A program made the translations under genes and the position numbers. A stretch of 56,183 nucleotides of DNA, filler included, from Circinaria calcarea (Eukaryota), in NCBI GenBank assembly GCA_051942165.1. It is 6 parts of 6 records of this genome, joined end to end, with 100 filler letters (N's around TTAATTAATTAA, not from the genome) between each part and the next. Parts side by side here need not be neighbours in the genome. Positions count along the whole stretch, not along the records: positions 28,173 to 37,452 come from JAVECS010000955.1; 5 more parts are not named here. One strand, 5' to 3'. The notes below the pieces were generated by a model. The model saw only the letters and a program-made list of their open reading frames with translations, was not told the DNA's origin and did not search any database. The stretch's first letter is position 1. The number at the start of each line of letters is the position of its first letter. Shown piece by piece: positions 25,023-45,599 of the stretch.

Positions 25023-27440
25023 ATGCAGTCAGCCGAACCGCAGTGGGGAGGTGGCGGTGGAGGTACGAGCAGGCAGCACCGTGGGGGAAAGGGCAAGAGA
25101 CGGCAGTGGAACCCTTTCAAGCCTCGCGGTGGAGGAAACTTCAGTGGTGGAGGCTCTCGAGGACCCCGAGGCGCCCCGTGTGCCCCGCGTGCAATGTCTG
25201 GAAAGCTTGCGAGACCATCTTCCTTCCAAACACCTTCGAGACCCCCTGCAGATCACCAAGAGCAGAGTCATGACCGAGTTAGAGATCCCTTTGACGTTGC
25301 GAACGCATCCCCAAGACAGCCAAAACCGAGATCGCCCAGACCGCTGCCGGCTGATCATCCTCTGATGATCGAAATGGCGGAACTTACAGTTACCAGAGAG
25401 CGTCGGAGATTGTACTGGGCTGGCCTGGCTAATGAACTTGACGAGGAATGGAGAAACCCGGCTGGTCTTGACCGGCAGAATTGGCAAGAGGAGGAGAGGC
25501 TCGCTGATAAGAAGTACGCCGAATTGGCCGGGCAGATAATGCTTGCTGAGAGAAGTTTACCTATCATTGGAGCATCGCAGGTCTCGGACATTGGACAGCA
25601 TGATCCTAACTTAGGTAACCCCTTTGATGATAAGAAAGCCGATCGTGGATCAAGAGACGGTAAACCATATCGCAGTTACGTCAAGCCTAGGGAAACCGTG
25701 GTATGGAGTGATGAGAAGAAATTAAGCGCCGTGGATAAGTGGATGGAGGATATGGGGGCCACAGCACCGCTTGCCCGTGTTGAATCCCTCTTCATTGGTG
25801 ACAGCGATTCTAGTAATGGAGCCATGTCTCCGAAGCATGTTGAAGAATGGATTGACCAGGGAATAGTAGGAAGTGAAATCGGCCCACACCACAGTCTGGA
25901 GCCTAACAGTTTCTTATTAGGGGGCTATTCTACGAAGCCTCTAGTACCAGAACATCATATCGAGTCTTTCATTGACAATGGTGTGAAAAGAATATGGACG
26001 AGTGAAGATGAGGCGGCATACGAAGAGGCCGAAGCAGAGAGGGAATTGCAAAGGCTGGAGGCGGGCGCTTCGAGTAATAGAACAGCGGATGACATAGCTA
26101 CGTCCGAAGAAGCTGAAACAGAGAGAGAAGAGCAAAGGCTGCATGTAGGCTTCGACCAGGGTACAGTGAGCGACAGAACTATCTTACTTGCAACGAATTC
26201 CCAATCAACAAGACAAGATACTGCCCATGACAATGAATCACCACACAAGCATTGCGCCACTTCACTTTCCACCGTTATGAGAGCCGAAATCGATCTGGTG
26301 GATGAATCCACACCAGGTAGTCATTTCGAGTTGGCTTTAATTCCTAGCACCGAGAGACCTTTTATTGAACAACCAAGTAACTTGGACTATGTCAATTGTC
26401 AACACATCCCGGGCCCAACAAACATTATGCCTGCTGGTCCCGCCCAAAATGCCAAAGCTCCTTCAAGTATACCTTCCGACACCAAACCAGAAGGCACACA
26501 AGCTGGCCGAGACATGTTCGCGGCTTTACTTGAAGAACTGGACAGATCCGACTCTTCAGATTCAGAGCTAGAACCGGAGCCAGAGTCGGAGCAGCAGTCT
26601 CTCATGCCGCTAGTTACACAGCATGATATGTTTCTAGCCGAGCAACAAGCGCTTGCAATAGCAGCTTTTCGTGGCCTGCAAGAGCAAGGGCTAATAGGAA
26701 GGAGTGAATCGGCTGGATTAGCGGATGCCACAAATACAGAATTGCAGCCAAATAGTACTTCGACGAATGGGGTACCTCCAATGGTGAAGGACCCTGGAAC
26801 AGATTTGGAATTGCAGAGATCCAGATTCGAGGGCATGACTGTCGCCACCGACGAGATCAGCAAAACCAGTACGGAGTCCGTCTCGGAACGAGCTGAATGG
26901 ATGGATATAGACGATGCTGCTGTGGAAGTCGTCAATCTACAGAATGCAGCTGAGTCGGACTCCGAGCTTGAGAGCTCCGACTACACCATTCATGAACCTG
27001 CAACGGATGCCATGAAGTTTTATCGACCGAGGGTCAAGCCGGCAGCCATGCAGTCAATTCAGAGATCCTCTGCTCCTGGGATCCGAAGTAAGACGGCAGA
27101 GTCGGCAAAGCTCGATCCCGGTAGCAATGATGACGGTTATCCCTGTGAAAGCGAATCAGGTTCTGACGATACCATAGGATACGAAAGAGTACCAGAGGTC
27201 CGCCGAGGGCAAAGGTCGACCTCGGCATTTGAGAGGAGCAAATCCACTTCAGCGATGAGCAAGCAAAGACGGCTGTCAAAGATCTGGACGTTGGAGAACA
27301 AGTTGCGAAAAATCGGAAAATATAAGGCGAGAAGGGATGCGGGCAAGGAGATTCCCTTTGCGCATACCCGGATGATCAATAGGGAAGAGGATTTCACATT
27401 GGATCTGGAAGTTCTGAGGGCTTGGGGTAACTCGGGGTAA
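25023..27440 (+). CDS. Hypothetical 805-aa mostly disordered protein with Gly/Arg-rich N-terminus and a C-terminal basic helical hairpin
   Basis: Uninterrupted 2.4-kb ORF with ATG in A-rich context; acidic low-complexity middle. Confidence 0.7.
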   Translation: MQSAEPQWGGGGGGTSRQHRGGKGKRRQWNPFKPRGGGNFSGGGSRGPRGAPCAPRAMSGKLARPSSFQTPSRPPADHQEQSHDRVRDPFDVANASPRQPKPRSPRPLPADHPLMIEMAELTVTRERRRLYWAGLANELDEEWRNPAGLDRQNWQEEERLADKKYAELAGQIMLAERSLPIIGASQVSDIGQHDPNLGNPFDDKKADRGSRDGKPYRSYVKPRETVVWSDEKKLSAVDKWMEDMGATAPLARVESLFIGDSDSSNGAMSPKHVEEWIDQGIVGSEIGPHHSLEPNSFLLGGYSTKPLVPEHHIESFIDNGVKRIWTSEDEAAYEEAEAERELQRLEAGASSNRTADDIATSEEAETEREEQRLHVGFDQGTVSDRTILLATNSQSTRQDTAHDNESPHKHCATSLSTVMRAEIDLVDESTPGSHFELALIPSTERPFIEQPSNLDYVNCQHIPGPTNIMPAGPAQNAKAPSSIPSDTKPEGTQAGRDMFAALLEELDRSDSSDSELEPEPESEQQSLMPLVTQHDMFLAEQQALAIAAFRGLQEQGLIGRSESAGLADATNTELQPNSTSTNGVPPMVKDPGTDLELQRSRFEGMTVATDEISKTSTESVSERAEWMDIDDAAVEVVNLQNAAESDSELESSDYTIHEPATDAMKFYRPRVKPAAMQSIQRSSAPGIRSKTAESAKLDPGSNDDGYPCESESGSDDTIGYERVPEVRRGQRSTSAFERSKSTSAMSKQRRLSKIWTLENKLRKIGKYKARRDAGKEIPFAHTRMINREEDFTLDLEVLRAWGNSG

Positions 27441-28172: not shown

Positions 28173-29890
28173 GGGGTGTTGAGAACCTTGGGAATAGCCT
28201 TACCAGAAAGCGAATACTCCCTCTTCGAACCAGTAACGCAGAAGATGATGCAAACAATAATAATGCTTTTGAAGCGTACGAGTCACACAAGAAGTTGTTT
28301 CAGGAGGCCTACAGCAATTATATTTAATGTAATACGCTTCGACCCAAAATTACCCGTGCTACTGGACAGCATTTCGCCAATGACATGGGACCGTTCTTTG
28401 AGACTCAGATTTCAAATTTCATACCAGACCATAACCGAAAAGAGTGAAGAGAGACCAGGAGGAGGATATATAAGGATACAATAGTTTGGCTCTTGTCATA
28501 AAATCTCACAAACTTGCGAGGAGATGTACCTTCAATTGTGAAATGATTTCATGAAGTCATAGAACAATGAATAATCCCGGGCATACTGCGTTTAAGGGCG
28601 AGGCTGTGGCCTCATAGAACGTGCTGTTATACCATGACAGCAATAAACGTGGTATCAGGCCGAGCGACTTTGAAAGATGACATTATTCTCACCACATACG
28701 GCACTGATGGTAGGTCGTGTAGGTCTAGCGAGAAAAGAGCGAGCGCGTATATATAGAGAGAAAGTCGTAGTAGATAAAGCGAGTAAACAAGCGCATTCAC
28801 ATCGCATCATTAGGAAGGAAGATGGGACAGTACTAAATGTGCCTCTGGTATCTACAGTCCAAATGTGCCGCTTGTGATTATGGAATGGCAACGTTAAGCA
28901 ACGTTAGAATAAGTTCTTATATCTAGGTTAGGAGAGGAAATACTGGCCAAGGGTAAGGTCAAAGAGGGCAAAGGGAACGGTGATCGTCTTATACTCAGAT
29001 AATAGGAGAAGCGTACCAATTGCATCCAGGCATGGAAGAGGGTTGACAAAGGCCCAGGGGAGATTAGAATTTATAAAAAATGGCAAAGAGCGGTGGCTCA
29101 AGATCGCTGCTTGACAAAATTGTCTATATATTTCAAATAAGGGAGGAGTATCTATGTTGGTCGTATGTAATGACCGGGTTATAAGAGATGTCAATGCCTC
29201 ATGGCCGTATATGGATTACCAATAGCTGGACAAGGAATGAACAGACCTGAAGCACTTACCTCTGTCCATCGCCACCATTTGCCAATCGCCATAGGAGCAG
29301 CTATATCTGATCAGCGCAAGTTGCCTTGCGTATACCATGTTAATAGAGCCGCTTATTTACTCCTTCTCGCAATAGAAGACGCCAAGAAGAACTTAAAGGA
29401 AGTGCAATCTACTTTACTTTGTTGCAGCTCAGAAGTACAAAAATATTGCCTTGGATGTTCTGGTCTCTGATCTGGTGGATGTGCTACGACATCTTCAACT
29501 AGGCGGTTGAAATTCATAATCTCTTTCTAAGTAGGGAAATTCGAGCGCTCAAGTCTAAATGGCCTAATGCGAAAGCATTAGATGTTATTCACGAAGCCAA
29601 GCAACAGATTGCGGAGTTGGCAAATCTTTAGAGGAAGCCAGGGGTAAAAGACCCCAAAAACAATGCCGACACAATGGACTTTCTTACGCGACTCGATGTC
29701 GGGACTCATATGACGAAGAGAGCAAATATAAGTCAACAGATTGATAACATTACAAAAGAGTGTTTTATAAATTATATGCAATAGTTAAAACGATTACCCC
29801 AGACTTGGGTCGATTGGAGTGACAAGCTGTTAGCTGACTTCGAGGAAGAACAAGAACATTGTCATGGAGAATGTCAAACAGATCTGTGAT
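28173..29890 (+). pseudogene. Decayed coding sequence of unknown identity, RIP-like
   Basis: Protein-like reading (AFEAYESHKKLFQEAYSNYI*CNTLRP...; VEIHNLFLSREIRALKSKWPNAKALDVIHEAKQQIAELANL*RKP...) broken by isolated TAA/TGA/TAG codons, e.g. 28325, 28445, 28499; AT-rich. Confidence 0.5.
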
Positions 29891-30398
29891 GCTACGGATG
29901 AGGTGGTAGAATGAGGTGGGTAATGGTCATCACACGGTTCGAGAAATGCTGGAAGAGAGGAGAAGTAAGGAGATTGAAGGCTATGTAATGCATTGAAGGG
30001 GTAGCTACCTGCAAGATCTGTCACTTGGATTTGTATTGAAGTTGGCTGCTCTGCGGTTGTATAAGAGGTCGGTAGGATATTATATGCTAGCGCATATGGT
30101 TTAAGGAGAGAACATTGAACAGTGCAGTGTTGTATACCTCAGATAGGACAGTTAGGCGAGGATATAGGCTACAGAGAACCGACGAAGGCGGGAGAGGCTC
30201 ACGCAGAAATCATTAAATTTGCACCTCTGGTGATCAGTAGATTAAAAGATCCATCACTTGACGGCTTTCTGAATGTGCACCCTATGTAGCCGAGGAGTTG
30301 CCACACGATACCAGCCCCACGGGTATCGCATAAAAACCGTCAACGCCGGTCTATCCATCCAAGCGTTGTTCAAGACCGCTTTGGGAATGCCGTCAACG

Positions 30399-31349
30399 CT
30401 ATGCAGCAGTATTATCACCCAAGAGCCTCGCCAACAAAACATACCCAATGACTAGCATTGCCCCGACTGTGAACTTATGCCTCCTTACCCAACTCTGCCC
30501 TGCGTTCCTCGCGGCGTGCCCGCCCTCAACGACCGCCCCCAAGCCCGCTGCGCTCCCACCAGGTCTTCTCCTCAACGCTGCTGCCTCTGGAGAACAAGTA
30601 ATCGACAAAATCGCGTTGGGATCTGGTGCCATGTTTCCAGTGGCGGGGTCGACTCGGTTTTCTTTCATCCACTTCCAATTCTCCGCGTCCAACTCTGGCC
30701 ACTCGGCTCTGAACTTTACTCCTCCATCTCCTGCCTTAATTGCGCCAATCCCTTTCGTACTCGCGTTCACTCCTGGAACCGCTTTACTACTCGTTCCGCC
30801 ACCCGTGCTATTCCACCACCTCGTCCTCGCTGCGGCCCATTTACGTTCCGCTTCTGAAGCGTGAACACTACCGGTAGTCATTTCATCGCTGGTCATGAAA
30901 GACATTAGGCCGATTAGGATGGTGGAAACCTCCCAGGCTGGATTGAAGGATTTGGGGTGAAAGTCGGAAATGCTGAGGCAGAGGCGGGTGGAGGGTTGAA
31001 AGCGGCCGGAAGGGGTATGCATACGTATGGCGGGAGGAGCGAATGGGTATTCGGGAGGAAAGATCAAGGTGCCCCAGTATTGGCCATTTTCATAGGGTGT
31101 TTTTGGGGGCCCAGTGAGAATATAGTGCCATCTACGTTATGGCGTTAGAGTGAGTAGAATGGTGGAGAACCAGCTGGGAAGCTTACTCGAGGATGTTGGT
31201 TTCGGAGGGATGCGCGACAATGTAGGGAGGCGGGTTTTCTTGGATGGTTTTGTATTCCCGAGTAAGCTGCTCTCGAGGTTAGCGGAGTGCACTTGCAACC
31301 GTGGAGGCATAGGTGTATAAACCCGCTTGTTAGCAGCGCGTGTTGCCAT
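30399..31349 (-). CDS. UBC6: ER tail-anchored ubiquitin-conjugating enzyme E2; 3 exons
   Basis: MATRAANKR|LTREYKTIQENPPPYIVAHPSETNILE|WHYILTGPPKTPYENGQYWGTLIFPPEYPF...RLCLSISDFHP; C-terminal TM helix. Confidence 0.95.
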
Positions 31350-31632
31350 TTTGCAGCCTCTATAGTGTAGGAATTCTGTACTGGAAGAACGTGGAGTAAG
31401 AGAGTCGTGAGGCCGTAAAATCCTAAGTTGAGTTGCGAGAGCGGAAGTGGATGAGTTGACAATGCGATGTCGATCATCGGCAACGTCGCAGTAACTATTA
31501 ATCCTGGTTCCGCATAGGGCTGGTCGAAGCCTCTACATGCATGAGCTTTACGCTAGCAAGGTAAGGGACTGGCGTGAGCTCCGAGCCCGTTTCTGAGAGT
31601 TGAGATGCCATTGTAGCTTGACCCATCACTCA

Positions 31633-33388
31633 ATGGCGTCGCCATTGGATTCCGAAGATGATGTGAGTACGCTTAGCCGTTAGGAAGCCCCCTACTTTAA
31701 GGGGAGCTCTCGCTAACATGAGCGCGTGATTCATTTAGATCTTCGAGAATCTTCAAAAGCGCGTTGATCCCAAGCTTCAGGAGGAGAAGAGTCGAGCGGT
31801 ACACGAAAGGCAGCGGGGTCAATACGAAAAGGCACAGAAACGATTGGCAGAATTGGTACCTAGATCTCCTACCCTCGAGTCCTCTTCGAGATTTTTCCCC
31901 TTTTACGAGGTCCTACGGACTTAACAAAGCTTTAAGATAGATAATAACTCGACCCTACCTTGTACAATCTCTTCAATCCGTATCCTCAATGCGAATCATA
32001 CACGAGTTGGCTTTCTGGAAAGGATATTCAAGCCTCTCTTGAGTGCCAATCAAGATCGACCGTACACATTAGCAGAAGCTATACAGGAGGTTTCCATTGG
32101 CGCAGAGAAGCTACACAAACTTGGTATAATCTACGGTTGACTATCTTAAACTTCGAGGCTGATAGACGGTCTAGACATATTTCATCAACCTATTTCCCTT
32201 TTCATCGACAAACCTTCGAAAACAGAACCCTCGACCACTCCCACGGACATCGAAATTTATCTATCGGTCAAAGAAAAGTCAAGATTCATTTTGAAAACTG
32301 GCACAGACGTTGGAAACGCAGAAGGGTCCGCATATGGTAATCTCTTATGGCGTAACATTTTCGGAGGGGCAGAAACTCTAAACCTCAATGCTTCTCTGGG
32401 TACGCGGACACGATCAGCTTATCAAGCTAGCTTCGAAACGCCGATCTTGAGCAATCCTGATGTCCGGTGGGAGCTTGGCGGCCTCGCAAGTTCGACCCAG
32501 AAGAGCTTCGCAAGCCACGAGGAAGTGTTGAAAGGAGGTTGGACAAAGCTACGTTGGCTGGCTGCTGGAGGCAACAGGCATGAAGTAGGATACAACGGCA
32601 CTTGGAGACAGGTCACAGGTCTTGCAAGCAATGCCAGTCCTACAGTCAGGACGGACGCGGGGGATAGCGTTAAGAGTAGCGTCAGTTACACGTGGGTGAA
32701 CGACCAAAGAGACAACCCTATACTTCCTTTGCGTGGCATCTACAGTAAAGCGATGAACGAGCTTGCTGGCTGGGGCCCACTCCAGGGTGACGTGGCGTTT
32801 TGGAAATCTGAAGTGGAGACACAAGCGGCCGTACCCATTCCTATACCTGGTATACAAGGCGACAGCGGTGTTTCTGTTACCACAGGTCTTCGAGCCGGGT
32901 TTATATACCCTTTATGTCTCGGCTCAGACTCAACACCGAAGGCCTCGCGTCTCAATGATCGTTTTCAATTAGGTGGGCCAGCAGATGTCCGAGGTTTTCG
33001 ATTATCAGGTCTAGGTCCTCGAGATGGGACAGATGCAGTTGGCGGTGATGTATATGCTGCTGGCAGCGCAAATATACTATTCCCCTTGCCAAGAGTCAGT
33101 ATCGATAGACCCTTTCGAATGCAAGCTTTTATCAACGGAGGGCGGTTGCTAGCATTGAAGAGACCCGAGAAAGAAGGGAATGTGGACAGTCAGTCAGTGC
33201 CAAAGAGCATGGCTGCGACGATTGCCGAGCTCGGGAATGGTCTTCCCAGTATGGCTGCAGGTTTTGGCGTGGTGTATGCACATCCGGTGGCGAGATTTGA
33301 GCTCAATTTCTCGTTGCCCCTGGTACTACGGAAAGGTGAGGATGCGAGAAAAGGACTGCAGTTCGGCGTCGGGATAAACTTGCTCTAG
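31633..33388 (+). CDS. SAM50: Mitochondrial outer-membrane beta-barrel assembly factor Sam50/Tob55; 4 exons; head-to-head with UBC6 (about 280 bp between starts)
   Basis: KTGTDVGNAEGSAYGNLLWRNIFGGAE, DRFQLGGPADVRGF, ARFELNFSLPL, beta-signal GLQFGVGINLL. Confidence 0.95.
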
Positions 33389-34028
33389 GATAACCATCGA
33401 TCAGTACCTAACATCCCCCTTGTACATAGTCACAAGCGTGTGTCAAATAAAGTTAGTTCAACCACAAATCATGTTGCCCCAATCTTGCGTCTCCTCGAAG
33501 CGGGCAAGCAAGAGTCGTTGCTAAAACCAATTATATGATCCTGGATTGCTCCTTATGCAAAGAGCTGAGTCTCATGAAGGCTGTAATTCTTGAGCTCTGA
33601 AGTCTCGGCTCAAGAAAAGACTTGATATCTGTTTACACCGCTGCTATTGGCCGCTTGAATCGTGCACATCAAGGTTATGGCTTGAGCCGCCTAATTCAGC
33701 GTCTCCGTTGATGTCTTGTGGCGATGGAACGTCGGCGTCAAGGTAACGCGCTACCGGAAGGCATACGTAGGTAGTCAGGTATAAAGGACGGAGGCACTCC
33801 TCATGCGCTGATTGGCAAGGAACTTTTAACACACCAAAACCCATGAAGCTAGCCGGGTGAAAGGTAATCCGCTCCCCTCCACGAAAATTAAGCGAAGCCC
33901 GATCCCCACAATTCGCCAAAACGTCCCCAATGGCAAATTTCTTATATCTGCGATGCTGGGCTTTAGATACTGCAAAAGAAAATCTTTATAAAGCGTCTCA
34001 GGTGTTCGTAAGGTTAAAATCAAAACGT

Positions 34029-34033
34029 AAAAA
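34029..34033 (-). terminator. RNA polymerase III terminator (T5) of the tRNA-Ala gene
   Basis: TTTTT begins 2 nt after the discriminator A73 on the minus strand. Confidence 0.8.
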
Positions 34034-34055
34034 GCTGGAGACACTGGGAATCGAA

Positions 34056-34103
34056 CTGGGAGCCAATCAGTAACTGTATTTATGTCTAAGACAGCTGACT
34101 TAC
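34056..34103 (-). other. Spliceosomal-type (GT-AG) intron in the tRNA T-arm at position 53/54
   Basis: GTAAGTCAGCTGTCTTAGACATAAATACAGTTACTGATTGGCTCCCAG: donor GTAAGT, branch ACTGAT (34071-34066), acceptor CAG. Removal restores CTGGG-TTCGATT-CCCAG exactly. Confidence 0.85.
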
Positions 34104-34119
34104 CCCAGGACCGTTCCTA

Positions 34120-34131
34120 TATCACATGATG
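34120..34131 (-). other. Canonical tRNA intron at position 37/38
   Basis: CATCATGTGATA follows A37; its TGTGA can pair with the anticodon loop TCGCA, as in typical endonuclease substrates. Confidence 0.85.
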
Positions 34132-35766
34132 TGCGAAAGGAAAATTATACCCCTAAACCATATCCCCAATTATAATAGTGATTTCCTTATAATAAAATAT
34201 TATTAAAATAACTAAGCTAGCTGGGTAGTACGATCGCTCTAAATGTTCTCCCGCAACCCGAACTAGAGAATGTTAAGGAAATCTGACGGAGGATTCTCTT
34301 TTATAAATATCTTCAGTACGTTAGATGTGGTGAGGCCATCAGATGCAATAGGATTGTATGCTATATATTCTTTTCGCTTGTTTGTTTACTAGAGATTACA
34401 TCCCGGACTATTCTATAGATTCTACTTACTCCGGCTTCTTGGAGCCCCTAATTTTATTTGTATGAACCTCGTATGCCACCCCATTCTTATCACCGAGGTG
34501 GCAGCTTGGGATCTTCTCAAATCGACTACGAGGGTATTCATTTTTATTCTAGGAAAAGAGTATATCACCAGTGCACCTCGAAAGGTGTGTGTGTTGGATG
34601 ATTTTCCTAGCCTTTGAACTCCTCTAGTGGCTTGGCCAGGCGCCTTCGGTATGTATTGGTGATTGAAAAGTCAGGTGGCAAGTTGCTGACACATCTCACT
34701 ACAAGAGAAAGAATAAGGTTGGTTCCCTCAAGACTATTGGCGGTCACTGAAAAGCTTTTTTCTTGGGAAGGAGCAAGGAAAGGCAATTCTCGAAGATATT
34801 CAAGTGTTCTGTCGCGGGATTGTAAGGAACTCTCCCGAGCATGAAGAAGGAATGCAACCTATTCGGTAAATTATCCTGGCTTATTCTGGATACTTACAAG
34901 TTCTGGCAAGAGATATGGCCATGCGAGATGAGATAGCAGCGAATGTATATGGATGTTTCCTATTGAATCAAAGCTATAGCTATGTGTCTGAGTCTAATCA
35001 GAACCACGTCATGGGTTGTGCAAGGCACGATTGACTTTTATAGAGGTACTAATCCTTATTATCATGGCCTAAAACATACCTGTGGCAGAAACTAGACCCC
35101 CATTTCACCTACCAAGTAATCCCTACTTCCGGTCTCTACTAATCACCTGCGCGCACTAAGATTGAAGTCCTGGGAGTTTTACCTTCATGTGGATTGCCGT
35201 CAAGAAAGCGAGCTGCCAGTTGATGTCTTTCGGAGCAGTTGACCTTGTGGACCTTGAAAGCAACAAAACGATCCTCGCTTGAGTGCGCCTGTCATGCCGA
35301 CACAGAGAATTGGGGAAGCATGAAGGGGCATCTTTGCAGCTGTTCTTGGCAATGCAGAGGTTGACTGCTTCGTTCTGCAGCAGTCCAATTACCAGAATAC
35401 TTACGGTCAGCCGAATAATGACATGCAATAATAAGGTCATTTTGGTGATTCGCCGCATTAAGTACAGAGCGTGCAAACCACGCTCTACGTCCATAGAAAT
35501 ATAAAAATAACAACTGGGAGGATACCCTTGATTTTTAAATGGATTAGTAAAGAAGCGGGCTAGATAGAATAATACCATTTATGATGCATGCGAAACAAGC
35601 GCTTTAAGCGCATCGATGGCAAAACGCATCATTCATCAATAGTAACTTCGAGAAAGAATATGGCGTTCATACGGTCAGCAGTCGTGGTTCGCTGCATTCA
35701 CAAAGATGATGTTTTCTTGATAATTTCTTACATCTTCGACCGTCATCCTTTCGTGTTTCATCCGCC

Positions 35767-37452
35767 ATGAGTGATCGCATAGAGACACCTCTGAGGTGGA
35801 CAACTCAGCTAAAAGTCGCTGAGTCGGTCTCGAGACTGCATGGTGACAAGATCATACTACCTCAATCCGCGTTAGAACAGCTACTATCTGCAGCCACGAC
35901 GACGATTACACAATCAAGTGCGCCTTCACAAGCTTACACAAGCACCTTTGATCCATTCAATCCCTATTCGTTTGCTGCAGAAAGCCAAGCAAGGTCGCAG
36001 TTCTCCGAGAGGCAACAGCATCTACCGCATCCCCTCACATTCCGACTGGTGAATCCAGAGAATGGAAACATTGCCTATGCTGGAGTCAGGGAATTTTCCG
36101 CCGCCGACAGCGAAATCGGGCTCAGCCCTTTCCTACGTCAAGCACTTGGGGTTGGAGATGCAAAGCAACCCCTCAACGGCAATGAAAGCTACAAGATTAC
36201 AGTCCACGCTCACCAGCTTCCAAAGGGTACTTACGTCCGGTTTCGACCATTGGAAGCTGGATACGATCCTGAGGACTGGAAATCACTGCTAGAACACTAC
36301 ATGCGAGATACCTTTACGACCTTGATGAGAGGTGAAATACTAAGCATATCTGCTGGGAAGGAGGAGTTTAGGTTCTTGGTTGATAAGATAGAACCGGAAG
36401 GAGAGGCAATATGCATTATTGATACCGATCTGGAGGCGGACATTGAGGCTTTGAACGAGGAACAAGCTCGGGAGACTCTCAAGAAACGTCTGCAGAAGAC
36501 GGAAAAGCGGATACAAAGTAAAGATGGTGATTCCGCGGGAGGTATTCTTACGATTGGAAAGATCGAGGCCGGGCAAGTTCGGGCTGGCAGTTACGTAGAC
36601 TACACCATAGAGAGCTGGGACCGCTCCAAGGATGTTAATTTCGAATTGGACTGTGAGGACTCGGAAAATCCTCTCGATATATTCGTTAATCCTTTTTCAC
36701 CTAAGCAAAGAGCAAGGCCTCGGGAGGAAGAGTATGTGTTCGCTGACCTTTCGGGGCGGCCATCAAAGAGATTACGAATACAGAAGACGAACGCAGAATT
36801 TGAAGGTGCTGACGCGTTATACGTGTCTGTACGGAGCTACAATGCCACAGCAAGTACCGATTCACCACAGCAGACTCATCCAATACAATATTCCCTTCGG
36901 ATATCCGCGGAGGATACTCTGACAAACTCAACAGACCATGATGCGAAAATGAGCGATGGGGGAGCGCACGACGGCGATGAGGTTCAGTGTAAAAACTGTA
37001 AACAAATGGTACCTAGGAGGACGCTCTTCCTTCATGAAAACTTCTGCCTTCGCAACAACGTTCTCTGTCCTAGGTGCAAAGAAGTATTCCAGAAGTCTTC
37101 CAATGAATGGCGAAACCACTGGCACTGTCCACATGATGATGCGCATGGAAACTATCCCAGTTTGCAGTATAAGCACAACAACCTCTACCACACACCTAGG
37201 TCATGCTCGAATTGTAATTACGAAGCGCCAAACACCCCAGATCTAGCACACCATCGAACAACTACTTGTCCCAGCAAACTCATCCTCTGCCAGTTCTGTC
37301 ATCTACTCGTCCCTCAGCAAGGCCCCGATGATCCGAGCCCCTCAGATCCAGAAGTCGTCCTCTCGGGTCTCACGCCTCACGAGCTGAGCGATGGAGCCCG
37401 AACCACCGAATGTCACTTGTGCGGCAAGATCATCCGACTTCGCGATATGGCC
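35767..37452 (+). CDS. UFD1-domain protein with C-terminal TRAF-like zinc fingers; 3' truncated
   Basis: GDKIILPQSALEQL, YAGVREFSA, LPKGTYVRFRPL, ICIIDTDLEADI; fingers CKNC..LHENFC, CSNC..HRTTTC. Confidence 0.88.
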
Positions 37453-37552
37453 NNNNNNNNNNNNNNNNNNNNNNNNNNNNNNNNNNNNNNNNNNNNTTAA
37501 TTAATTAANNNNNNNNNNNNNNNNNNNNNNNNNNNNNNNNNNNNNNNNNNNN
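37453..37552. other. Artificial contig-joining linker
   Basis: N44-TTAATTAATTAA-N44. Confidence 0.99.
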
Positions 37553-38235
37553 AAAAAAAGGATGTATTTTTTGTCTATAAATGAAAGTGTAAGCATTTCA
37601 CCTCAAGAGTAATGTGGCAACGCAGAAACTGAAATCATTAGACCGTTTCTGAAACCAGTAGTGAAGTATGTTGTTTAATTAGATGGTCCGCAAAAAACCT
37701 TACCACAATTTGTATATTATTAGCTTAATACAGGAGTTGCACGGCTGTCTTCAGTTAATGTCGTGAGATTTTGGTTAGTTCCATTAAATTAACGTAAACC
37801 CTTACTTTATTTTATATAAAGTAGTTCCCCGCTATATTGGATATGATAACAGGGACTAAGACAAGTCATCATGGCCTGAATATTGTGGGCTATAGACGTG
37901 CCACATAAGCCTATACAAAGGGATGCGAAATTGTGAAATTGAGCTAATCCCCTAAAATCGGATAAAACATGGATTGTAGTCTGTAATTCGACTATATGAA
38001 AAAGGAATTACTAGTAATCGTGAATAAGAACGTCACGGTGGATTTAATCTCAGATAGGTACTAACTACTCGTCAGGCGCTGAAAGGAGTTCGTGCAATAA
38101 GTTTGGTTGGTGTTTTCTTATAATTTAGGCAATTAGGTCTAGATAAGTTTACCTTCAATCTTCGTATGCGCGTCTCTGATTAGTGTTAAGTCGAAATATG
38201 GTTCGTGTAGTGGAAGTTGCACGGAATTGATTAAT
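37553..38235 (+). rRNA. rns: Mitochondrial small-subunit rRNA, 3' part
   Basis: Conserved SSU segments GAAACTGAAATCATTAGACCG, AAAAACCTTACCA, TGCACGGCTGTCTTCAGTTAATGTCGTGAGAT, GGAATTACTAGTAATCGTG, GTTAAGTCGAAATATGGTTCGTGTAGTGGAAGTTGC; 3' end approximate. Confidence 0.93.
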
Positions 38236-38302
38236 ATTAACAATACCCCCAATATATTTATCTTATTTTATAGATGATAAATATATAAATAGGACAGCTA
38301 GA

Positions 38303-38387
38303 AGGAAGGTTCCGTTTGTTGGTATGACGGGTTGAGCTGTAAACTCAATAGCATTTGCTGTCAAAAGTTCAATTCTTTTTCTTCCTA
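38303..38387 (+). tRNA. trnY: mt tRNA-Tyr(GTA)
   Basis: AGGAAGG...TTGAG CTGTAAA CTCAA, long variable arm, TCTTCCTA end. Confidence 0.9.
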
Positions 38388-39299
38388 CATATTAATTCTT
38401 TATCTAATTAATATTATTTTCACGAAAAGACCTGGATAGTATATATCTTATATTCTAATAATAAATTAAAAAAAAAAATAAAATATAATTATTGTTATTG
38501 TTATAATCAGGTATTATAGGTTCTTTATCGCTAATTAAGTATAGTTGTACACAACTAAAGTTTACAGCAAGATAATAAAAATATGCAATGATATTTTAGA
38601 GTAAAAAAAAAAAGAAAAAAAAAATGAATAAATATAAGTATATATTTGATATAGCTTCTATTAAAAAAGGTATTTTGAAAGGTTTAGCATACCTTTGTTA
38701 CCTCGTCCTATTAATAAAGTGTATAATTATCCTCTAGTAAGAATTTTAATAGTTATAGGTGGATTTGAATCTATTTTAGTTTTGACTCTAAATTATACAT
38801 ATTTACCTAATTTCATCACTTAATTGTTTTAGTCTTTGGTTTTATTCAATTAATGTAAAGAGTTATTATCTCAATTATTAAGGTTAAATACGGTATAAGA
38901 AAATTAAGTCTCCAAAAAAAAGATTTTTAAGTTAGAAATTCTCCTTTAAATAAATATGCTTATATACTTGCTAGTTTAGCTTATTGCTGAAGGGTCGGTT
39001 GTACAGCAGTTGGTGGTGGTATTATAGGGGGTGTTGCGTTAGACCAGGCTTTAGAAGCTGGAGGTTTTTTAATAAAAAAGGTAAAAATATTTTTACCTTT
39101 TTTTAGTAGAGAGGTTAGTTTTGCTTTGGGTAATAATGTAAATAAAGATGCTTTATCAGTTTATAATAATATTAATAAGAATATTAAAGAATTAGATTAA
39201 GCTGAAGAAAGACATAAATATATTTTTATATTAATTGATAAAATTAATTCTAAAGACTATAAAAATTAGAAACTAATTTTTTATTTCTTAAAAGAAAAA

Positions 39300-39765
39300 A
39301 TAGGAAATTCTTGTATATTGTTATAGGGAAGATAAAAATGTATCTTCCATCAAAAAAGAACATTACTATCTTTATAGATTAAACCAAAATATAATACATT
39401 GAAGATAGCTGGTTCTTCTTACGGTTATAGAGATAATGAAATTAATTTAGCTAAATTAAGTACACGAGTTGTAACGGAAGAGACATTATGTAAAATGAGA
39501 ACACGTATTCAGAGCGAAAAGACTCTTCCCTTGGATGTAAAGCATTAGGTATTCCATTAATAGTTACTGATATTGATGAAGAATATATGATTCAATATAT
39601 TTTTAATTTTTTGGTTTCTAAAAAAAAAAAAAAATAAAATAAAAAAGTAAGCTGCCAGAATAATTGGCGTATCAGAAGCTACTATAAGACGATATATAAT
39701 ATAAAAAGTAAAAAATTACTCTTTAATAGGTATTTAATTGTAGAAGTTAAATCCAATAAAAAGTA
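39300..39765 (+). pseudogene. Decayed GIY-YIG homing endonuclease, C-terminal remnant
   Basis: EILVYC...KKEHYYL / KPKYNTLKIAGSSYGYRDNE...LAKL and NUMOD1-like AARIIGVSEATIRRYI...KKLLFNRYLI, with frameshifts. Confidence 0.7.
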
Positions 39766-40011
39766 AGATATGGCGGCTTGGCTTACTCTGTGTACATCAA
39801 AGTATCCGTGGCAAAATGCTTTTAAGAGTTAAAATCTCTCATTTCCTATTGGATGCTATATAAGATATATTCATTTATCTTAAGATTATCCTCTTTAATA
39901 TATTTAAACTTATTTAGATTGATATACATATAAATTTTGCCTTTTTGTCATATTTTAACCATCTTATTAGGAGAGTATTTTATTTATAAAATGATTATTT
40001 AATAATCTAGA

Positions 40012-40082
40012 GCCTTTATAGCTCAATGGTAGAGCGAGATACTGTTAATATTTTGATGAGTGTTCGATTCACTTTAGGGGCT
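40012..40082 (+). tRNA. trnN: mt tRNA-Asn(GTT)
   Basis: GCCTTTA..AGATA CTGTTAA TATTT..GAGTG TTCGATT CACTT TAGGGGCT. Confidence 0.92.
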
Positions 40083-40175
40083 GTTAATAGGATAAGTGTA
40101 TTTAATTAACATACCTAATTACGCATTTTTATGCATAACATATCTACTGGTTATCTCTCCTAAAATTTAACACAA

Positions 40176-40248
40176 GACGTGTTGGCTTAATTGGTAAAGT
40201 TTTGTGCTACGGACACAAGTATTGTAAGTTCGAATCTTGCACACGTCT
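40176..40248 (+). tRNA. trnR: mt tRNA-Arg(ACG)
   Basis: GACGTGT..TTGTG CTACGGA CACAA..GTAAG TTCGAAT CTTGC ACACGTCT. Confidence 0.9.
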
Positions 40249-40299
40249 AAATCTTTAGAAGAAAGTCAAGTGAGATAGAAAAATTATATATATATAATG
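40249..40299 (+). repeat. 51-bp direct repeat, copy 1 (duplicate of nad6 leader plus ATG)
   Basis: AAATCTTTAGAAGAAAGTCAAGTGAGATAGAAAAATTATATATATATAATG; 49/51 identical to 41523-41573. Confidence 0.95.
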
Positions 40300-41418
40300 G
40301 AAAAATTTTTTTCCTCTAAATTTCGCAAAGTCCATATATTAGTATCATCTTGGTTTCAGGCTTTAACTTATAATAAGGTTAAAACCTTATTAATTAGTTT
40401 ATTTATAACTTTCATTATTATTAATACATCTTTCTGTTTATTATATTATGTTTATGACTATAATCCTTCTCTTTATATAAGAGCATTTATAAATATATTT
40501 TTTATATTACCTATTGCACGTAGTATCACAAGCAAAACTTATGGGGGCAACTACTGTATTAGAAATAAAAAAGAAAAGGGGAAAATATTATATTCAGTGA
40601 TACATTTTTTTAAAACATCCCTTTATTCTTATACATTTAGTGTACTATTCATATCTTTTGGCATATCTGAGGTAGTTTATATTCCTCTTCTAAGTTTTAT
40701 GGTTTTAACAATACTAACTATGGATATTCATATTTTGGGATCTCCAGATTATTGCATGGGGCCAAATGAGGAACGATCTTTAACAGTGTGAAATAACACC
40801 TTTAGTGAAAATGGTAAAATGGTTGTGGAGGGCGAATCATCTAGCTCTAAAAATAAGAGGACCCATACTAAAGCTTTTTCTTCGTCTCCTTCTCCTTCTC
40901 CTTCTCAAGTAGAAGAGAGAGAAGTTGGACGGATTAGAAGGGCTATCTATTGCGGAAAAGCTACACCAGTTGATCTACCTGATAGAAGCATCGAAGATAT
41001 TAATACTCCTACCTTTAAACCAGATCTTCGTATGCCTTTTAACAGAGTACCTGCTGAAATACCTCCTACAGTAAGTCTAGCTCTTTCGGATAAAAGTAGT
41101 TTTTGAGCAAATATACAATCTAAATATACTAATACAACAGGTGATGTTACACCTTGTCCCTATACTTACCGTTTAATAGAGGAAAAATATAAACACAATA
41201 GAGATACTGGTTATTTATTTAATTTTTCCGGTGATTCTATTGAACAAAAAAAACAATCATTAGAGTTGTTAGTTTTCTTGTATGAAGAGGCTTCAACAGC
41301 ATATGATAAACATGTTGCGGATAAGCTTTCTGACTCCAAAAAATCTGAATATTATAAGTGGTTACATAGGTATTTAGCTTGTAGACATCATCATCAAAAA
41401 AGTTATCTCTTGACTTAA
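40297..41418 (+). CDS. Mitochondrial orphan ORF, 373 aa (code 4), hydrophobic N-terminus
   Basis: Track ORFs 40297-40791 and 40819-41106 are in one frame and join when TGA=Trp; the frame continues to TAA at 41416-41418. Confidence 0.75.
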
Positions 41419-41522
41419 GTTAAATCGTATCTAATTTGGAGATGTTTTAGAGTCTTTTATGTTGACTCTATCCAATAAGGATATATATATCTAAATAAAT
41501 TTCTTTTCTTTTTTTTATAAAG

Positions 41523-41573
41523 AAATCTTTAGAAGAAAGTCAAGTGAGATAGAAAAAATATATAAATATAATG
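41523..41573 (+). repeat. 51-bp direct repeat, copy 2 (nad6 leader plus ATG)
   Basis: AAATCTTTAGAAGAAAGTCAAGTGAGATAGAAAAAATATATAAATATAATG. Confidence 0.95.
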
Positions 41574-42239
41574 AATAGTTTAGATATTTTATCTGAAACC
41601 TTTACTAATGGATATAGAGTTGAAATTTTATCTATTTTTTCAGTAGCTGCCATTTTATGTGGAATCCTTGTTATAATTAGCAAAAACCCTATAGTCTCTG
41701 TTCTCTTCTTAATTGGTTTGTTTTTAAGCATAGCATGCTATCTTATTATACTAGGTTTAAATTTTATTGGTTTATCTTACTTATTAGTTTATGTAGGTGC
41801 TGTTTCTATATTATTTCTTTTTATCTTAATGCTAATAAATGTGAGAATTTCGGAACTTCAGAGTGAAACTAGTAATAGTATACCACTAGCAATTATTATA
41901 GCCGTAAGCTTTAATTATCCTTTACATGAAACATTACCATCTAGTTTAACTGTTTTAAACAGCTATCCACAAAATTTAAACCATATGTTTAAGGATGTTT
42001 TATCTAATTATAGTTATAGTTACTATCTAAAAAATTTTTTGTTTAGATCTGATAAGAGTGATGTAATAGTATTTGTTACTTCTAAGACCTGAGATGGAAA
42101 CTTAGCAGAAACTAGCCATATTACAAGTATAGGTAATATTATGTATACTAGTTATTCAATATGATTAATAATAACTTCTATTATTTTACTTTTGGCTATG
42201 GTTGGTGCTATTGTTATAACAATAGAACAAAAAAATTAA
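41571..42239 (+). CDS. nad6: NADH dehydrogenase subunit 6 (code 4), 222 aa
   Basis: SKNPIVSVLFLIGLF, YLLVYVGAVSILFLFILMLIN, W(TGA)DGNLAETSHITSIGNIMYT...LLLAMVGAIVIT. Confidence 0.97.
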
Positions 42240-42402
42240 AAATAAGATTAAAGAATCTTATCCTAAATATCCATTTAATAAATCTAAATTGTTAATCTAA
42301 TTTTAGATTAGATTAGATTGCTAATAATTAGCTTTCATTTATTAATCTGGTATAGGTCGGGGATTAAAGTTTAAATAATATTAAGGCTAATTTTTAGCCT
42401 TA

Positions 42403-42474
42403 GAGGAATTAGCTCAATGGTAGAGCTACCGTTTTACACACGGTGGGTTAGGTGTTCAAATCGCCTATTCCTTA
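42403..42474 (+). tRNA. trnV: mt tRNA-Val(TAC)
   Basis: GAGGAAT..ACCGT TTTACAC ACGGT..ATTCCTTA. Confidence 0.92.
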
Positions 42475-42611
42475 GTCTATAAGAAAGATTAATTTAATAT
42501 AAAAATGTCTACTTTTGGAAGACTCTCTAGAAACTACTGTAAGAGAGTGATTTAAGACCTAAAAATAGGTAACATACACACGTTAAATTGAATAAAACAA
42601 TAAACAATCTA

Positions 42612-43421
42612 ATGACAAACTTAACAAGAAGTACTTTTCAAGCTCATCCATTTCACTTAGTTTCTCCTTCACCATGACCTCTTTATACATCTGTCTCTCT
42701 TTTAACTCTTACTACTACAGGTGTTTTAACTATGCATGGATTTAGTAATGCACAGAATTTTTTAGATTTAGCTTTTTTTTCTTTAATTTCTTCTATGTCT
42801 TTTTGATTTAGAGATGTTATTTCTGAAGCTACATATCTAGGTAATCATACACTAGCTGTACAAAGAGGTTTAAATATGGGAGTCTTTTTATTTATAGTGT
42901 CAGAAGCTTTGTTTTTCTTAGCAATCTTCTGAGCTTTTTTCCATAGTGCTTTGTCTCCTACTATTGAATTGGGTGCTCATTGACCACCTATGGGGATAGA
43001 TGCGGTTAACCCTTTTGAATTACCTTTACTTAATACTGTAATACTCTTGTCATCGGGTGTTACAGTTACATATGCTCACCATTCTTTAATACAAGGAAAC
43101 AGAAGTGGAGCTTTATATGGGTTAGTCTTTACAGTAATATTAGCTTTCATTTTTACTGCCTTTCAAGCAGTAGAATATACAGTATCTGGTTTCACTATTT
43201 CGGATGGTACCTTTGGATCCAGTTTCTATTTTGGTACTGGTTTCCATGGACTACATGTTATGATTGGTACAGCTTTTATAGCTGTTGGATTATGACGTCT
43301 ACTTGCCTATCATCTCACAGATAATCATCATCTTGGTCTAGAGTCTTCAATACTTTATTGACATTTTGTTGATGTAGTTTGATTATTTTTGTATATATCG
43401 ATATATTACTGAGGTTCTTAA
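42612..43421 (+). CDS. cox3: Cytochrome c oxidase subunit 3 (code 4), 269 aa, intronless
   Basis: [63 protein letters not shown]. Confidence 0.98.
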
Positions 43422-43483
43422 TATAAAATATAAAACAAGATAAAAAAAATAAGATCTTATTTTTTTTTCGAACAATATCCAAA

Positions 43484-43556
43484 GAGACTTTAATTTAATT
43501 GGTAAAATATGTGACTTTTAATCATCATTACGTGGGTTCAAATCCCGCAGGTCTTA
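43484..43556 (+). tRNA. trnK: mt tRNA-Lys(TTT)
   Basis: GAGACTT..CTTTTAA loop..GTGGG TTCAAAT CCCGC AGGTCTTA. Confidence 0.9.
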
Positions 43557-43565
43557 AATTGGCTA

Positions 43566-43636
43566 ACGGCCATAGGTTAATGGTAGACCGTTCGTCTTCC
43601 AAACGATGTGCGTCGATTCGAATTCGACTGGCCGTA
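43566..43636 (+). tRNA. trnG: mt tRNA-Gly(TCC)
   Basis: ACGGCCA..CTTCCAA loop..TGGCCGTA. Confidence 0.9.
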
Positions 43637-43656
43637 ATCTAGATATGTTTAGAATA

Positions 43657-43729
43657 GAGTTAGTAACTTAATTGGTAAAGGGCTTTCTTGTCGAGAAAGT
43701 ACATGTCGGATCGAAGCCGGCCTAACTCG
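43657..43729 (+). tRNA. trnD: mt tRNA-Asp(GTC)
   Basis: GAGTTAG..CTTTC TTGTCGA GAAAG..CTAACTCG. Confidence 0.9.
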
Positions 43730-43763
43730 ATCTTATCTAGAGATCTCTCTAAGAGATCTAAAA

Positions 43764-43845
43764 GGAAAAGTTGCTATTGGTAAAGCAAGATATTTGCTAA
43801 ATATTGTGTAATTAGCACCTGGATGTTCGAATCATCTCTTTTCCG
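43764..43845 (+). tRNA. trnS: mt tRNA-Ser(GCT)
   Basis: GGAAAAG..TTGCTAA loop, long variable arm, CTTTTCCG. Confidence 0.88.
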
Positions 43846-44002
43846 AGATAATTAAAAATTTGATCACATTTTATATATTTTATTAAAGATAAATTAATAG
43901 CTTTAAAGTTAAGCTTTTACTTAATTTTTTTTTATATTAGTGTGCTTTTAATATGGTTATCTAAGATTTTGCTTTTAATAAAACATAGAAGATCTTAACT
44001 TA

Positions 44003-44074
44003 AAGAGCATAGTTTAATTGGTAAAGTAGGAAGCTTCAAACTTCAAATTCTCAGTTCAAGTCTGAGTGCTCTTG
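44003..44074 (+). tRNA. trnW: mt tRNA-Trp(TCA)
   Basis: AAGAGCA..GAAG CTTCAAA CTTC..TGCTCTTG; consistent with TGA=Trp. Confidence 0.9.
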
Positions 44075-44117
44075 ACTAACTAAAATATTAGCTTCGACAT
44101 AGTCGAAGATGTCTAAA

Positions 44118-44175
44118 GGTTCTTTAACTTAACTGGTAAAGTGCGTTCTGTATAAGGATGTTATACAAGTTCAAT
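44118..44175 (+). pseudogene. Truncated, degenerate tRNA-Ile-like 5' part
   Basis: GGTTCTT TA ACTT AACTGGTA AAGT G CGTTC TGTATAA GGATG: D arm and anticodon stem present, loop altered, no 3' T-stem or acceptor strand. Confidence 0.7.
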
Positions 44176-44439
44176 TAGACTTTTTGTTTATAAGGTTAGA
44201 TATAGTATCAATCTATTGGTTAATACCATAAATATTTGGGTGGTGCAAATCCATGTTAACTTAATGATAAAACACATATTAAAAAAATAAATAAAAAAAA
44301 AAATTATTTTTTTTATAAAAATGTGGGTAATAACCCTTCAATAATAGGTACAGGGTTTTGTCTTTTAACGTGCGTCTCTCTAAAGCTGGTATAGAGGTAA
44401 TATGTTTTACAGCTAAATATCTGAAAACTACTTACAACT

Positions 44440-45402
44440 GCACACTCCTGTTTTTTCCTTTGATGTAGTGCCGATAAAATTATATTATGATGCTCACGCA
44501 TCCAAATCAGATATAGTTAAATTTTTTAAGGATAATACCATCATATATATGTGGTTTAAGAAAGTTACAGGCGAAATTAACATAGGGAGCAGATTAAAAG
44601 GAACGAATCGTTTAAACACATACTATTGGCCATCTGTGCTTAATAGTACTAAAAAGAGTTTAATATACAACAGTTTATTAAAAGACGGCCATAGTAATTT
44701 CAGTTTGGCTATTTTATAAATATGTAACACCTCTAGCTATACATCTAAAAGATCCTCTTTAAACAGATAAAGTTTTTATATTTAATCGGCTTTAAAGATT
44801 TATTTTAGAGAGTTAAAAAAAAGTTTTGAATATTTTAAATATAGCTGGGTCTAGTTTAGGGTATACTCATCTTACGGATAGTAAACTAAAGATTAGTGTT
44901 CTTTTTAGTTCTTTTTTTTATCTCTAAAAGGTAACATAAATATTATGTTCAACAAAAAACATACAGAAGAGACAGATAAATCCATCTGCTTAAAAATGAA
45001 AGGGCGACTTGGACATCTGCACACAGATATAACTCGGACAAAAATAAGTGAAAGCCTTCGGGGGCGAAGGTAAAAATACTTCGCAGGAGGCTAGAGATAA
45101 TATTAGTGCTGCATGTAAAGGCAGAATTCATACCGAGGAAACTAAAGCTAAATTAATAATAGCTATGCTTAATCTAAAACTTAGTGTAAGAACACTACAC
45201 TAGGTGTTAAAAAAAAATGAAAATAATACATAGTAAACCTATATTAGTTACAAATGTCCTTAATTGTAAAACATACCTTTATCCATCTATAAAGCAGGCA
45301 GCGTATGAGCTTAATACAACTAGTCTCAAAATTAGAAGATATATAAAAAATAAAAGTGTGATCTGGGATTTATATCTTATTACTGCGCCATCTGATGGCT
45401 AG
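44440..45402 (+). pseudogene. Decayed GIY-YIG homing endonuclease with NUMOD3/NUMOD1 modules
   Basis: IIYMWFKKVTGEINIGS..RLNTYY..IYNSLLKDGHSNFSLAIL* (TAA 44717), NILNIAGSSLGYTH, KKHTEET, GRIHTEETKAKL, YPSIKQAAYELNTTSLKIRRYI; stops and frameshifts. Confidence 0.85.
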
Positions 45403-45527
45403 CATCAAAGCAAATCTAAATATTTAGATATGTTTTAATAAATAGGTTAAATATTAATACTAAAGTACATTATAGCTCTGAATATTATTTAGAGAGTATC
45501 TTTATAGACAGGATTTATGTATACTCA

Positions 45528-45599
45528 GTTTCCTTAGCTTAATTGGTAAAGCGTATTTTTGATAAGAATATGTTCAGCGTTCGAGTCGCTGAGGAATCA
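45528..45599 (+). tRNA. trnI: mt tRNA-Ile(GAT)
   Basis: GTTTCCT TA GCTT AATTGGTA AAGC G TATTT TTGATAA GAATA TGTT CAGCG TTCGAGT CGCTG AGGAATC A. Confidence 0.9.

Follow-up and report, generated by a model that had tools for sequence, protein, structure and literature searches.

In the textbook view, tRNA splicing is carried out by proteins only (an endonuclease and a ligase) and is confined to position 37/38, and spliceosomal introns are seen as a feature of RNA polymerase II (Pol II) transcripts, with a few exceptions among small nuclear, small nucleolar, and ribosomal RNAs (snRNAs, snoRNAs, and rRNAs). Here we describe a tRNA-Ala(CGC) gene of Circinaria calcarea (GenBank assembly GCA_051942165.1) that is interrupted twice, by 12 nt at 37/38 and by 48 nt in its T arm, and whose longer insert looks like an intron of the mRNA type. 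The gene lies in a stretch of DNA of 56,183 nt, which we call the window: six parts of six genome records, joined end to end with filler between them, in which positions 28,173 to 37,452 come from JAVECS010000955.1. All positions below are positions in the window.

Introns of the mRNA type in the U6 snRNA genes of Schizosaccharomyces pombe and other fungi were reportedly described by Tani and Ohshima in 1989 and 1991 and by Canzler et al. in 2016, and Bhattacharya et al. are said to have found spliceosomal introns in the ribosomal DNA (rDNA) of lichen-forming ascomycetes in 2000. The hosts named in the relevant passages of a 2018 review are the genes for U6, U2, U5, and U1 snRNA and for rRNA, with no tRNA gene among them (PMC5855946). 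The original prediction, a note made earlier from the same DNA, had likewise counted U6 and rRNA genes among the non-mRNA hosts of spliceosomal introns. According to excerpts of another paper, the rDNA of lichen fungi carries spliceosomal introns, which yeast removes even from transcripts of RNA polymerase I (Pol I); an example from Cladonia is 57 bp long (PMC8527467). Fungal U3 snoRNA genes also carry spliceosomal introns, most of them inferred computationally, as described in part of a further study (PMC5832005).

A different kind of precedent comes from tRNA genes themselves. Ectopic and multiple tRNA introns are described, in sections of two papers, for Cyanidioschyzon merolae, cryptomonad nucleomorphs, and archaea (PMC4033280, PMC3978253), and in C. 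merolae, the intron at 37/38 is always the final substrate in the order of removal (PMC3978253, same sections). A term search of the first of these papers, a 2014 review of tRNA gene diversity, returned no word beginning with "spliceosom" from the searchable text (PMC4033280). Our own full-text search of the literature, with supplements outside its reach, found no spliceosomal intron described in a tRNA gene, in line with the original prediction, whose author knew of no described case.

The interrupted tRNA-Ala(CGC) gene

Once both inserts are set aside, the gene forms a complete cloverleaf (Table 1) with invariant residues and identity elements in place and a single mismatch, U13.U22. As read from the sequence, the acceptor stem has seven pairs, including G3:U70, and is followed by A73; G3:U70 and A73 are the marks of alanine identity. 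All five pairs of the anticodon stem are Watson-Crick, and CTGGG faces CCCAG in the T stem. The D stem has four pairs (G.U, U-A, U-A, and U.U), and its loop contains A14 and G18 G19. The residues that we checked by eye were all kept: U8, A14, G18 G19, U33, a purine at 37, G53, T54 T55 C56, A58, C61, and the G15/C48 pair. The 12-nt insert is at the canonical position of tRNA introns, 37/38, and the 48-nt insert, at 53/54, is not. The boundary of the 12-nt insert is ambiguous by one A (ARAGORN prints the intron one base leftward), and four pairs could form between this intron and the anticodon loop. Every statement of the original prediction on the sequence held when we re-read the locus, including the cloverleaf, both inserts, the run of five T's (T5), and the AT-rich upstream region.

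Tools for finding tRNAs do not report this gene. With or without its intron search, ARAGORN found nine tRNAs in the window, all within 38.3-45.6 kb, and none at this locus while the 48-nt insert was present. If the 48-nt insert is deleted in silico, ARAGORN calls a tRNA-Ala(cgc) with a 12-nt intron. Rfam at its gathering thresholds gave nothing at the locus. At permissive thresholds, the Rfam tRNA model aligned to the entire gene, over positions 1-71 of 71. The alignment places 15 extra nt in the anticodon loop and 54 in the T loop and has one non-standard pair (U13.U22); the score was 24.0 bits (E = 0.013), as compared to the gathering score of 29. ARAGORN thus calls the version that lacks the insert, and the Rfam model spans the interrupted gene, although below the threshold. 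We conclude that the gene is real and that ordinary annotation would miss it, as the original prediction had supposed.

The boundaries of the 48-nt insert stand out in a systematic scan. We removed every stretch of 30-100 nt that begins with GT and ends with AG, on both strands, and ran ARAGORN on each of the 27,368 constructs. A tRNA was called across the junction in 20 of them. In nineteen of these, the deletion simply clips the end of a mitochondrial-type tRNA that was already called without it; removing the 48-nt insert gave the sole new tRNA. ARAGORN is tolerant, however: when we tried 625 deletions near the insert (25 offsets by 25 lengths), 19 of them led to a callable tRNA-Ala. The GT/AG cut yields the perfect canonical T arm, and other nearby cuts could be scored by ARAGORN. 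The claim that this cut leaves no slack is therefore correct for the perfect arm but too strong for what ARAGORN will accept.

Table 1. Positions of the tRNA-Ala(CGC) gene and of other features in the window
Feature	Positions	Strand	Basis or remark
Whole tRNA-Ala(CGC) gene, positions 1-73, with both inserts	34167-34036	minus	132 nt; 72 nt without both inserts
Exon 1: acceptor 5' strand, D arm, anticodon stem 5' strand and loop to A37	34167-34132	minus	sequence, ARAGORN
Anticodon CGC	34135-34133	minus	sequence
Canonical tRNA intron, 12 nt, at 37/38	34131-34120	minus	ARAGORN
Exon 2: U38, anticodon stem 3' strand, 5-nt variable loop, T stem 5' strand	34119-34104	minus	sequence, ARAGORN
T stem 5' strand CTGGG	34108-34104	minus	sequence
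Spliceosomal-type insert, 48 nt, between G53 and T54	34103-34056	minus	sequence, ARAGORN, deletion scan
Donor GTAAGT of the 48-nt insert	34103-34098	minus	sequence
Branch motif ACTGAT of the 48-nt insert, A at 34067	34070-34065	minus	sequence
Acceptor CAG of the 48-nt insert	34058-34056	minus	sequence
Exon 3: T loop TTCGATT, T stem 3' strand CCCAG, acceptor 3' strand, A73	34055-34036	minus	sequence, ARAGORN
T5 run, likely terminator of RNA polymerase III (Pol III), 2 bases past A73	34033-34029	minus	sequence
Upstream 60 nt, AT-rich (20% G+C), TATA-like strings present	34227-34168	minus	composition count
mRNA introns with CTGAT and its A 10-12 nt from the end	2952-2905, 14493-14442, 14146-14075, 32124-32174		last one defined by homology (Sam50)
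Small-subunit rRNA, 3' part	37603-38225		mitochondrial-type block
nad6	41571-42239		mitochondrial-type block; open
cox3	42588-43421		mitochondrial-type block; open only with 8 TGA codons read as Trp
Unknown frame of 373 amino acids	40297-41418		mitochondrial-type block

Intron signals in the 48-nt insert

The insert has the features of a U2-type GT-AG intron: a donor of the GTRNGT kind, a CTRAY branch motif, a YAG acceptor, and a length within the range of the host. The A of the branch motif sits 11 nt from the 3' end of the insert. Furthermore, removing exactly this insert restores the tRNA product (in silico, as called by ARAGORN). To estimate how often such signals would arise by chance, we considered 48-mers of the window's composition and asked for a donor, a YAG ending, and a CTRAY motif whose A lies between 8 and 20 nt before the end. 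A random 48-mer would have all three with a probability of about 4e-7 (if the donor is GTAAGT) to 3e-6 (if it is GTRNGT). More loosely defined intron-like strings are not enriched in the window, with 7 found as compared to 9.9 +/- 3.8 in shuffled sequences. What lies beyond chance is the coincidence of the intron signals with exact restoration of the tRNA, not the intron-like pattern itself.

The insert can also be compared to mRNA introns in the same window. We gathered eight of these: five that join long open frames, and three in Sam50 that were placed by aligning the Sam50 protein of Lasallia to the window, independently of any motifs. The five were chosen by requiring a GTRNGT donor and CTRAY, so for these, only the CTGAT variant and its distance from the end are independent of the choice. 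The eight introns are 48-113 nt long, and one of them is exactly 48 nt. CTGAT with its A 10-12 nt from the 3' end is present in four of the eight (Table 1), and two of the eight begin with GTAAGT. The intron at 2952-2905 is 48 nt long and begins with GTAAGT. In its GCTGAT, the A lies 10 nt before the end, and the open frames that it connects have 334 and 364 codons; this confirms the original prediction, which had pointed to it as having the same length, donor, and CTGAT branch as the tRNA insert. Beyond these shared signals, the insert showed no similarity to the three mRNA introns that it was compared to (p = 0.22-0.31). As far as these signals go, the insert matches the style of the genome's own short mRNA introns.

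Among the mRNA introns of the window, the short ones favor CTGAT near the 3' end (4 of 8), and longer ones use CTAAC or CTGAC farther upstream.

Other origins for the insert

We considered whether the insert might instead be an ectopic tRNA intron that is cut by the tRNA endonuclease at a bulge-helix-bulge (BHB)-like fold and sealed by a ligase, in which case its GT-AG look would be incidental. Ectopic tRNA introns do exist in some eukaryotes, according to sections of the papers cited above (PMC3978253, PMC4033280). A BHB-like arrangement can be drawn because the last bases of the insert, CCCAG, repeat the 3' strand of the T stem: the 5' strand of the T stem pairs with the end of the insert at 4 of 4 positions, the bulges measure 3 nt, and there are 2-3 pairs on the outer side and 2-3 on the inner side. 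The minimum-energy fold of the precursor contains this helix. However, an equal arrangement appeared in 21% of 20,000 shuffles of the insert's interior and in 17% of 20,000 random interiors, as well as in two of the eight mRNA introns when they were moved to the tRNA site, and we rejected the BHB-like signal as being at chance level. The two cuts that the insert needs also fall at non-equivalent places in the two bulges, and a true BHB motif needs cuts at equivalent positions. Finally, removal by the endonuclease would leave the coincidence of donor, branch, and acceptor (4e-7 to 3e-6) unexplained. We consider this route to be very unlikely.

A self-splicing intron of group I or group II was rejected: the insert has just 48 nt, it is unstructured on its own (fold z = -0.35; 63 of 200 shuffled sequences fold as well), and Rfam found no intron family across 33800-34400 at E <= 10, where the only rows besides the tRNA were two at chance level. 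By eye, the insert seemed to contain degenerate copies of the tRNA's 3' end and T loop, which would suggest that it arose when the 3' part of the tRNA and its trailer were duplicated in tandem. This was rejected as well, because local and semi-global alignments of the insert to the downstream and upstream sequence were no better than alignments of shuffled sequences (p = 0.87, 0.42, and 0.33). The complementarity of the insert to the exons was also at the level of shuffled sequences (p = 0.95).

Overall, the signals, the length, the style, the lack of a genuine BHB motif, and the exact restoration of the tRNA are as originally predicted for a GT..branch..AG insert of the spliceosomal type. We are highly confident that, judged by its sequence, the 48-nt insert is a U2-type GT-AG intron.

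Whether the intron is spliced and the gene works

A separate question is whether a spliceosomal intron in this Pol III tRNA gene is really spliced and the gene works. We think that this is probable, and the original prediction, in which the transcript needs two splicing machineries, is supported in part. The same sequence features lead us to favor, with some reserve, a gene with two kinds of intron, a 12-nt intron of the endonuclease type and a 48-nt intron of the mRNA type.

Several points weigh against a working gene, in addition to the lack of enrichment of intron-like strings and the choice of five comparison introns by motif. First, the D stem is weak, with one G.U pair, two U-A pairs, and one U.U mismatch, and the Rfam score of the interrupted gene is under the gathering threshold. 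Second, Pol III transcripts have no cap and no coupling to Pol II and are generally poor substrates for the spliceosome. Third, by wobble, tRNA-Ala(UGC) can read GCG, so the CGC isoacceptor could be dispensable and this copy free to decay; also, there may be an uninterrupted tRNA-Ala(CGC) elsewhere in the genome. Fourth, a dead copy that is very young would be just as likely to have intact exons and splice signals. Fifth, the quality of the assembly should not be taken for granted, because a mitochondrial-type block lies 3.4 kb from the tRNA gene.

The weak D stem with its mismatch, the low Rfam score, and the dispensability (in principle) of the isoacceptor would all suit a young dead copy, in which an intron-like sequence landed in one copy of tRNA-Ala(CGC), is not spliced (or not usefully), and has not yet decayed. 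The sequence could have arrived by reverse splicing and retro-copying or as an intron-derived element, while another CGC copy or tRNA-Ala(UGC) does the work. However, the invariant residues that we checked, the three splice signals, the terminator, and the AT-rich upstream region are all intact together. Also, an RNA that was inserted by reverse splicing should, by reversibility, be a substrate for the forward reaction. And the window holds neither a further copy of the insert, of the kind that an introner-like repeated element would leave (elsewhere, it matches 11 nt at best, E = 0.41), nor a target-site duplication beyond chance. A dead copy, the main rival reading, seems unlikely, although we take it seriously.

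A 13-nt direct repeat (12 of 13 identical) does flank the gene, at 33846-33858 and 34214-34226, with a spacing of 368 nt. We rejected it as a target-site duplication, as by our estimate, chance alone would give about 0.8 such pairs within the 1.6 kb that was searched.

Could the insert, or its placement, be an error of assembly or sequencing? In the window, 9.4 kb of mitochondrial-type sequence with open nad6 and cox3 genes stands between nuclear genes, which may reflect a chimeric join. But an error would not yield a 48-nt stretch that carries perfect intron signals and that, when cut out exactly, leaves a restored tRNA, and the window holds no other copy of the insert that could have been the source of a mis-join. 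We find an artifact scarcely credible.

Transcription and a proposed order of maturation

AT-rich upstream sequence with TATA-like strings is seen ahead of fungal Pol III genes, and the 60 nt upstream of this gene are at the low extreme for the nuclear part of the window: just 0.7% of 46,723 nuclear 60-nt windows have a G+C content as low as 20%. The T5 run is followed by two runs of four T's (T4). The longest T run in the 48-nt insert is 2; elsewhere in the gene, there is one T4 in the region of the D arm and the anticodon stem. The inserts lengthen the distance from the A box to the B box by 60 nt. The DNA at the B-box region (positions 52-62) keeps 10 of 11 letters despite the insert, because the final AG of the intron stands where the spliced product has G52 G53. 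A scan of the tRNA region for promoters and terminators of the bacterial type found nothing that bears on a eukaryotic gene.

From the AT-rich upstream region, the T5, the lack of T runs above 2 in the insert, and the letters kept in the B-box region, we infer that Pol III would transcribe the whole unit, starting in the AT-rich leader and ending at T5. The nuclear spliceosome would then remove the 48-nt intron via a lariat at A34067. The T arm, and the helix of the acceptor and T arms, would form only after this removal. Because the T arm cannot form with the insert in place, and because the mature tRNA domain is what RNase P, RNase Z, the exportin, and the endonuclease recognize, the spliceosome would have to act first, in the nucleus. 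Trimming of the ends would follow, and the endonuclease would take out the 12-nt intron last, with the tRNA ligase sealing the exons. Transcription, the two splicing steps, and their order are thus proposed from the sequence, whereas the anatomy of the gene and its intron-like insert can be read directly from it.

As for its origin, an abundant nuclear RNA probably took up the intron by reverse splicing and was then copied back into DNA. This route has been proposed for introns in U6 snRNA and rDNA.

Searches for related genes and implications

We searched metagenomes for other tRNA genes that are split in this way. The pattern (AG followed by the gene's T loop, the 3' strand of the T stem, and a TCCA end) was too loose: it matched at least 120 loci, and by eye, there was no intron-bearing tRNA-Ala among the matches listed. 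Also among the matches listed, 1,986 deletions of GT..AG stretches that end at the AG of the pattern gave no ARAGORN tRNA. One of the loci (L008, match at 401-422) has a look-alike of the last third of a tRNA, with a T loop, the 3' strands of the T stem and the acceptor stem, and a T run, after TTTCAG; an upstream part of a tRNA was not recovered at this locus by GT..AG deletions within 320 nt. A tighter, two-part pattern had a single match in genome contigs, which is a chance match inside a bacterial coding region, and no match in viral contigs.

More broadly, the spliceosome might be a regular enzyme of tRNA maturation in lichen-forming and related filamentous ascomycetes, with some nuclear tRNA genes, including this tRNA-Ala(CGC), having acquired mRNA-type introns by reverse splicing into abundant Pol III transcripts. 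We see the case for this broader idea as evenly balanced. If it is true, then such tRNAs can form only once the spliceosome has acted, ahead of folding, trimming, export, and the endonuclease. The supply of these tRNAs would be tied to the capacity of the spliceosome, in a lineage whose rDNA introns of the spliceosomal type have been suggested to slow growth. Any tRNA that needs the spliceosome would provide a third eukaryotic route for removing tRNA introns and a natural test case for intron gain by reverse splicing. It would also show that the internal promoter of a Pol III gene can be split by an intron and still be tolerated, and it would mean that these fungi have more tRNA genes than standard tRNA finders count.

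Other features of the window

The neighbors of the tRNA gene are Sam50, on the plus strand and ending at 33388, and a UFD1-like gene that starts at about 35.7 kb. Among named relatives, the best for this Sam50, at 77-80% identity, are from Lasallia pustulata, Lambiella insularis, Schaereria dolodes, and Xylographa; environmental proteins reach up to 91% identity. Because the closest named relatives include Lecanoromycetes (L. pustulata and L. insularis), the host of the tRNA gene appears to be a lecanoromycete-like (lichen-type) ascomycete.

The mitochondrial-type block spans 9.4 kb (37500-46900) and has a low GC content (~17-40%); in the window, it lies directly between nuclear genes. Besides the genes in Table 1, it carries ten tRNA genes. 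Either mitochondrial DNA was copied into the nucleus very recently, or the assembly is chimeric. The two tRNA tools differ somewhat: Rfam has a tRNA at 43484-43556 (plus strand, 60.6 bits) that is missing from the ARAGORN list, and ARAGORN's tRNA-Tyr (38303-38388) and tRNA-Ser (43764-43845) are missing from Rfam's gathering table.

On the minus strand, 46941-48671 is one stop-free frame with isocitrate/isopropylmalate dehydrogenase and isochorismatase domains, which may represent a gene fusion or a read through two separate genes. Two other long open frames, at 24942-27440 (plus strand, 832 amino acids) and 12312-14129 (minus strand, 605 amino acids), have no Pfam family at E <= 0.001.

Comparison to known systems

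The 12-nt insert fits the canonical nuclear tRNA introns, as it is at 37/38, is short, and can pair with the anticodon loop. In contrast, the 48-nt insert at 53/54 would be out of reach of an endonuclease that measures from the mature domain, which cannot form while this insert is present.

Ectopic introns of the endonuclease type are a parallel within tRNA genes. As in tRNA-Ala(CGC), the tRNA genes of C. merolae, nucleomorphs, and archaea can have more than one intron, with one of them outside 37/38, and the removal order in C. merolae, with 37/38 last, matches the order that we propose. But the introns of the C. merolae type have a BHB fold and are cut by the endonuclease, whereas the 48-nt insert has a chance-level fold and the signals of a donor, a branch, and an acceptor.

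Fungal U3 genes are similar in that an ordinary spliceosomal intron sits within a structured non-coding RNA gene. The class of RNA is different, and so is the place: U3 introns are in a variable 5' stem-loop, and the tRNA insert is in the most conserved arm of the tRNA. The introns in lichen rDNA are also similar to the insert, as they appear to come from the same fungal lineage, are short and of the mRNA type, and lie in genes that are not transcribed by Pol II. They differ in that they are in Pol I-transcribed rRNA and have RNA evidence, while the intron of tRNA-Ala(CGC) is in a Pol III gene and is known from sequence.

The introns of U6 snRNA genes are also alike: short GT-AG introns with a branch motif in the gene for a small and abundant Pol III RNA, and thought to have been gained by reverse splicing, as we propose for the tRNA insert. 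For S. pombe U6, splicing has been shown; for the tRNA-Ala(CGC) insert, it is predicted. Unlike the U6 introns, the insert has a tRNA as its host and interrupts the internal promoter region (the B box and T arm), and the gene has a second intron that would need the endonuclease. Thus, while mRNA-type introns in non-coding RNA genes are known, a tRNA host, and a place in the T arm and B box, would be new.

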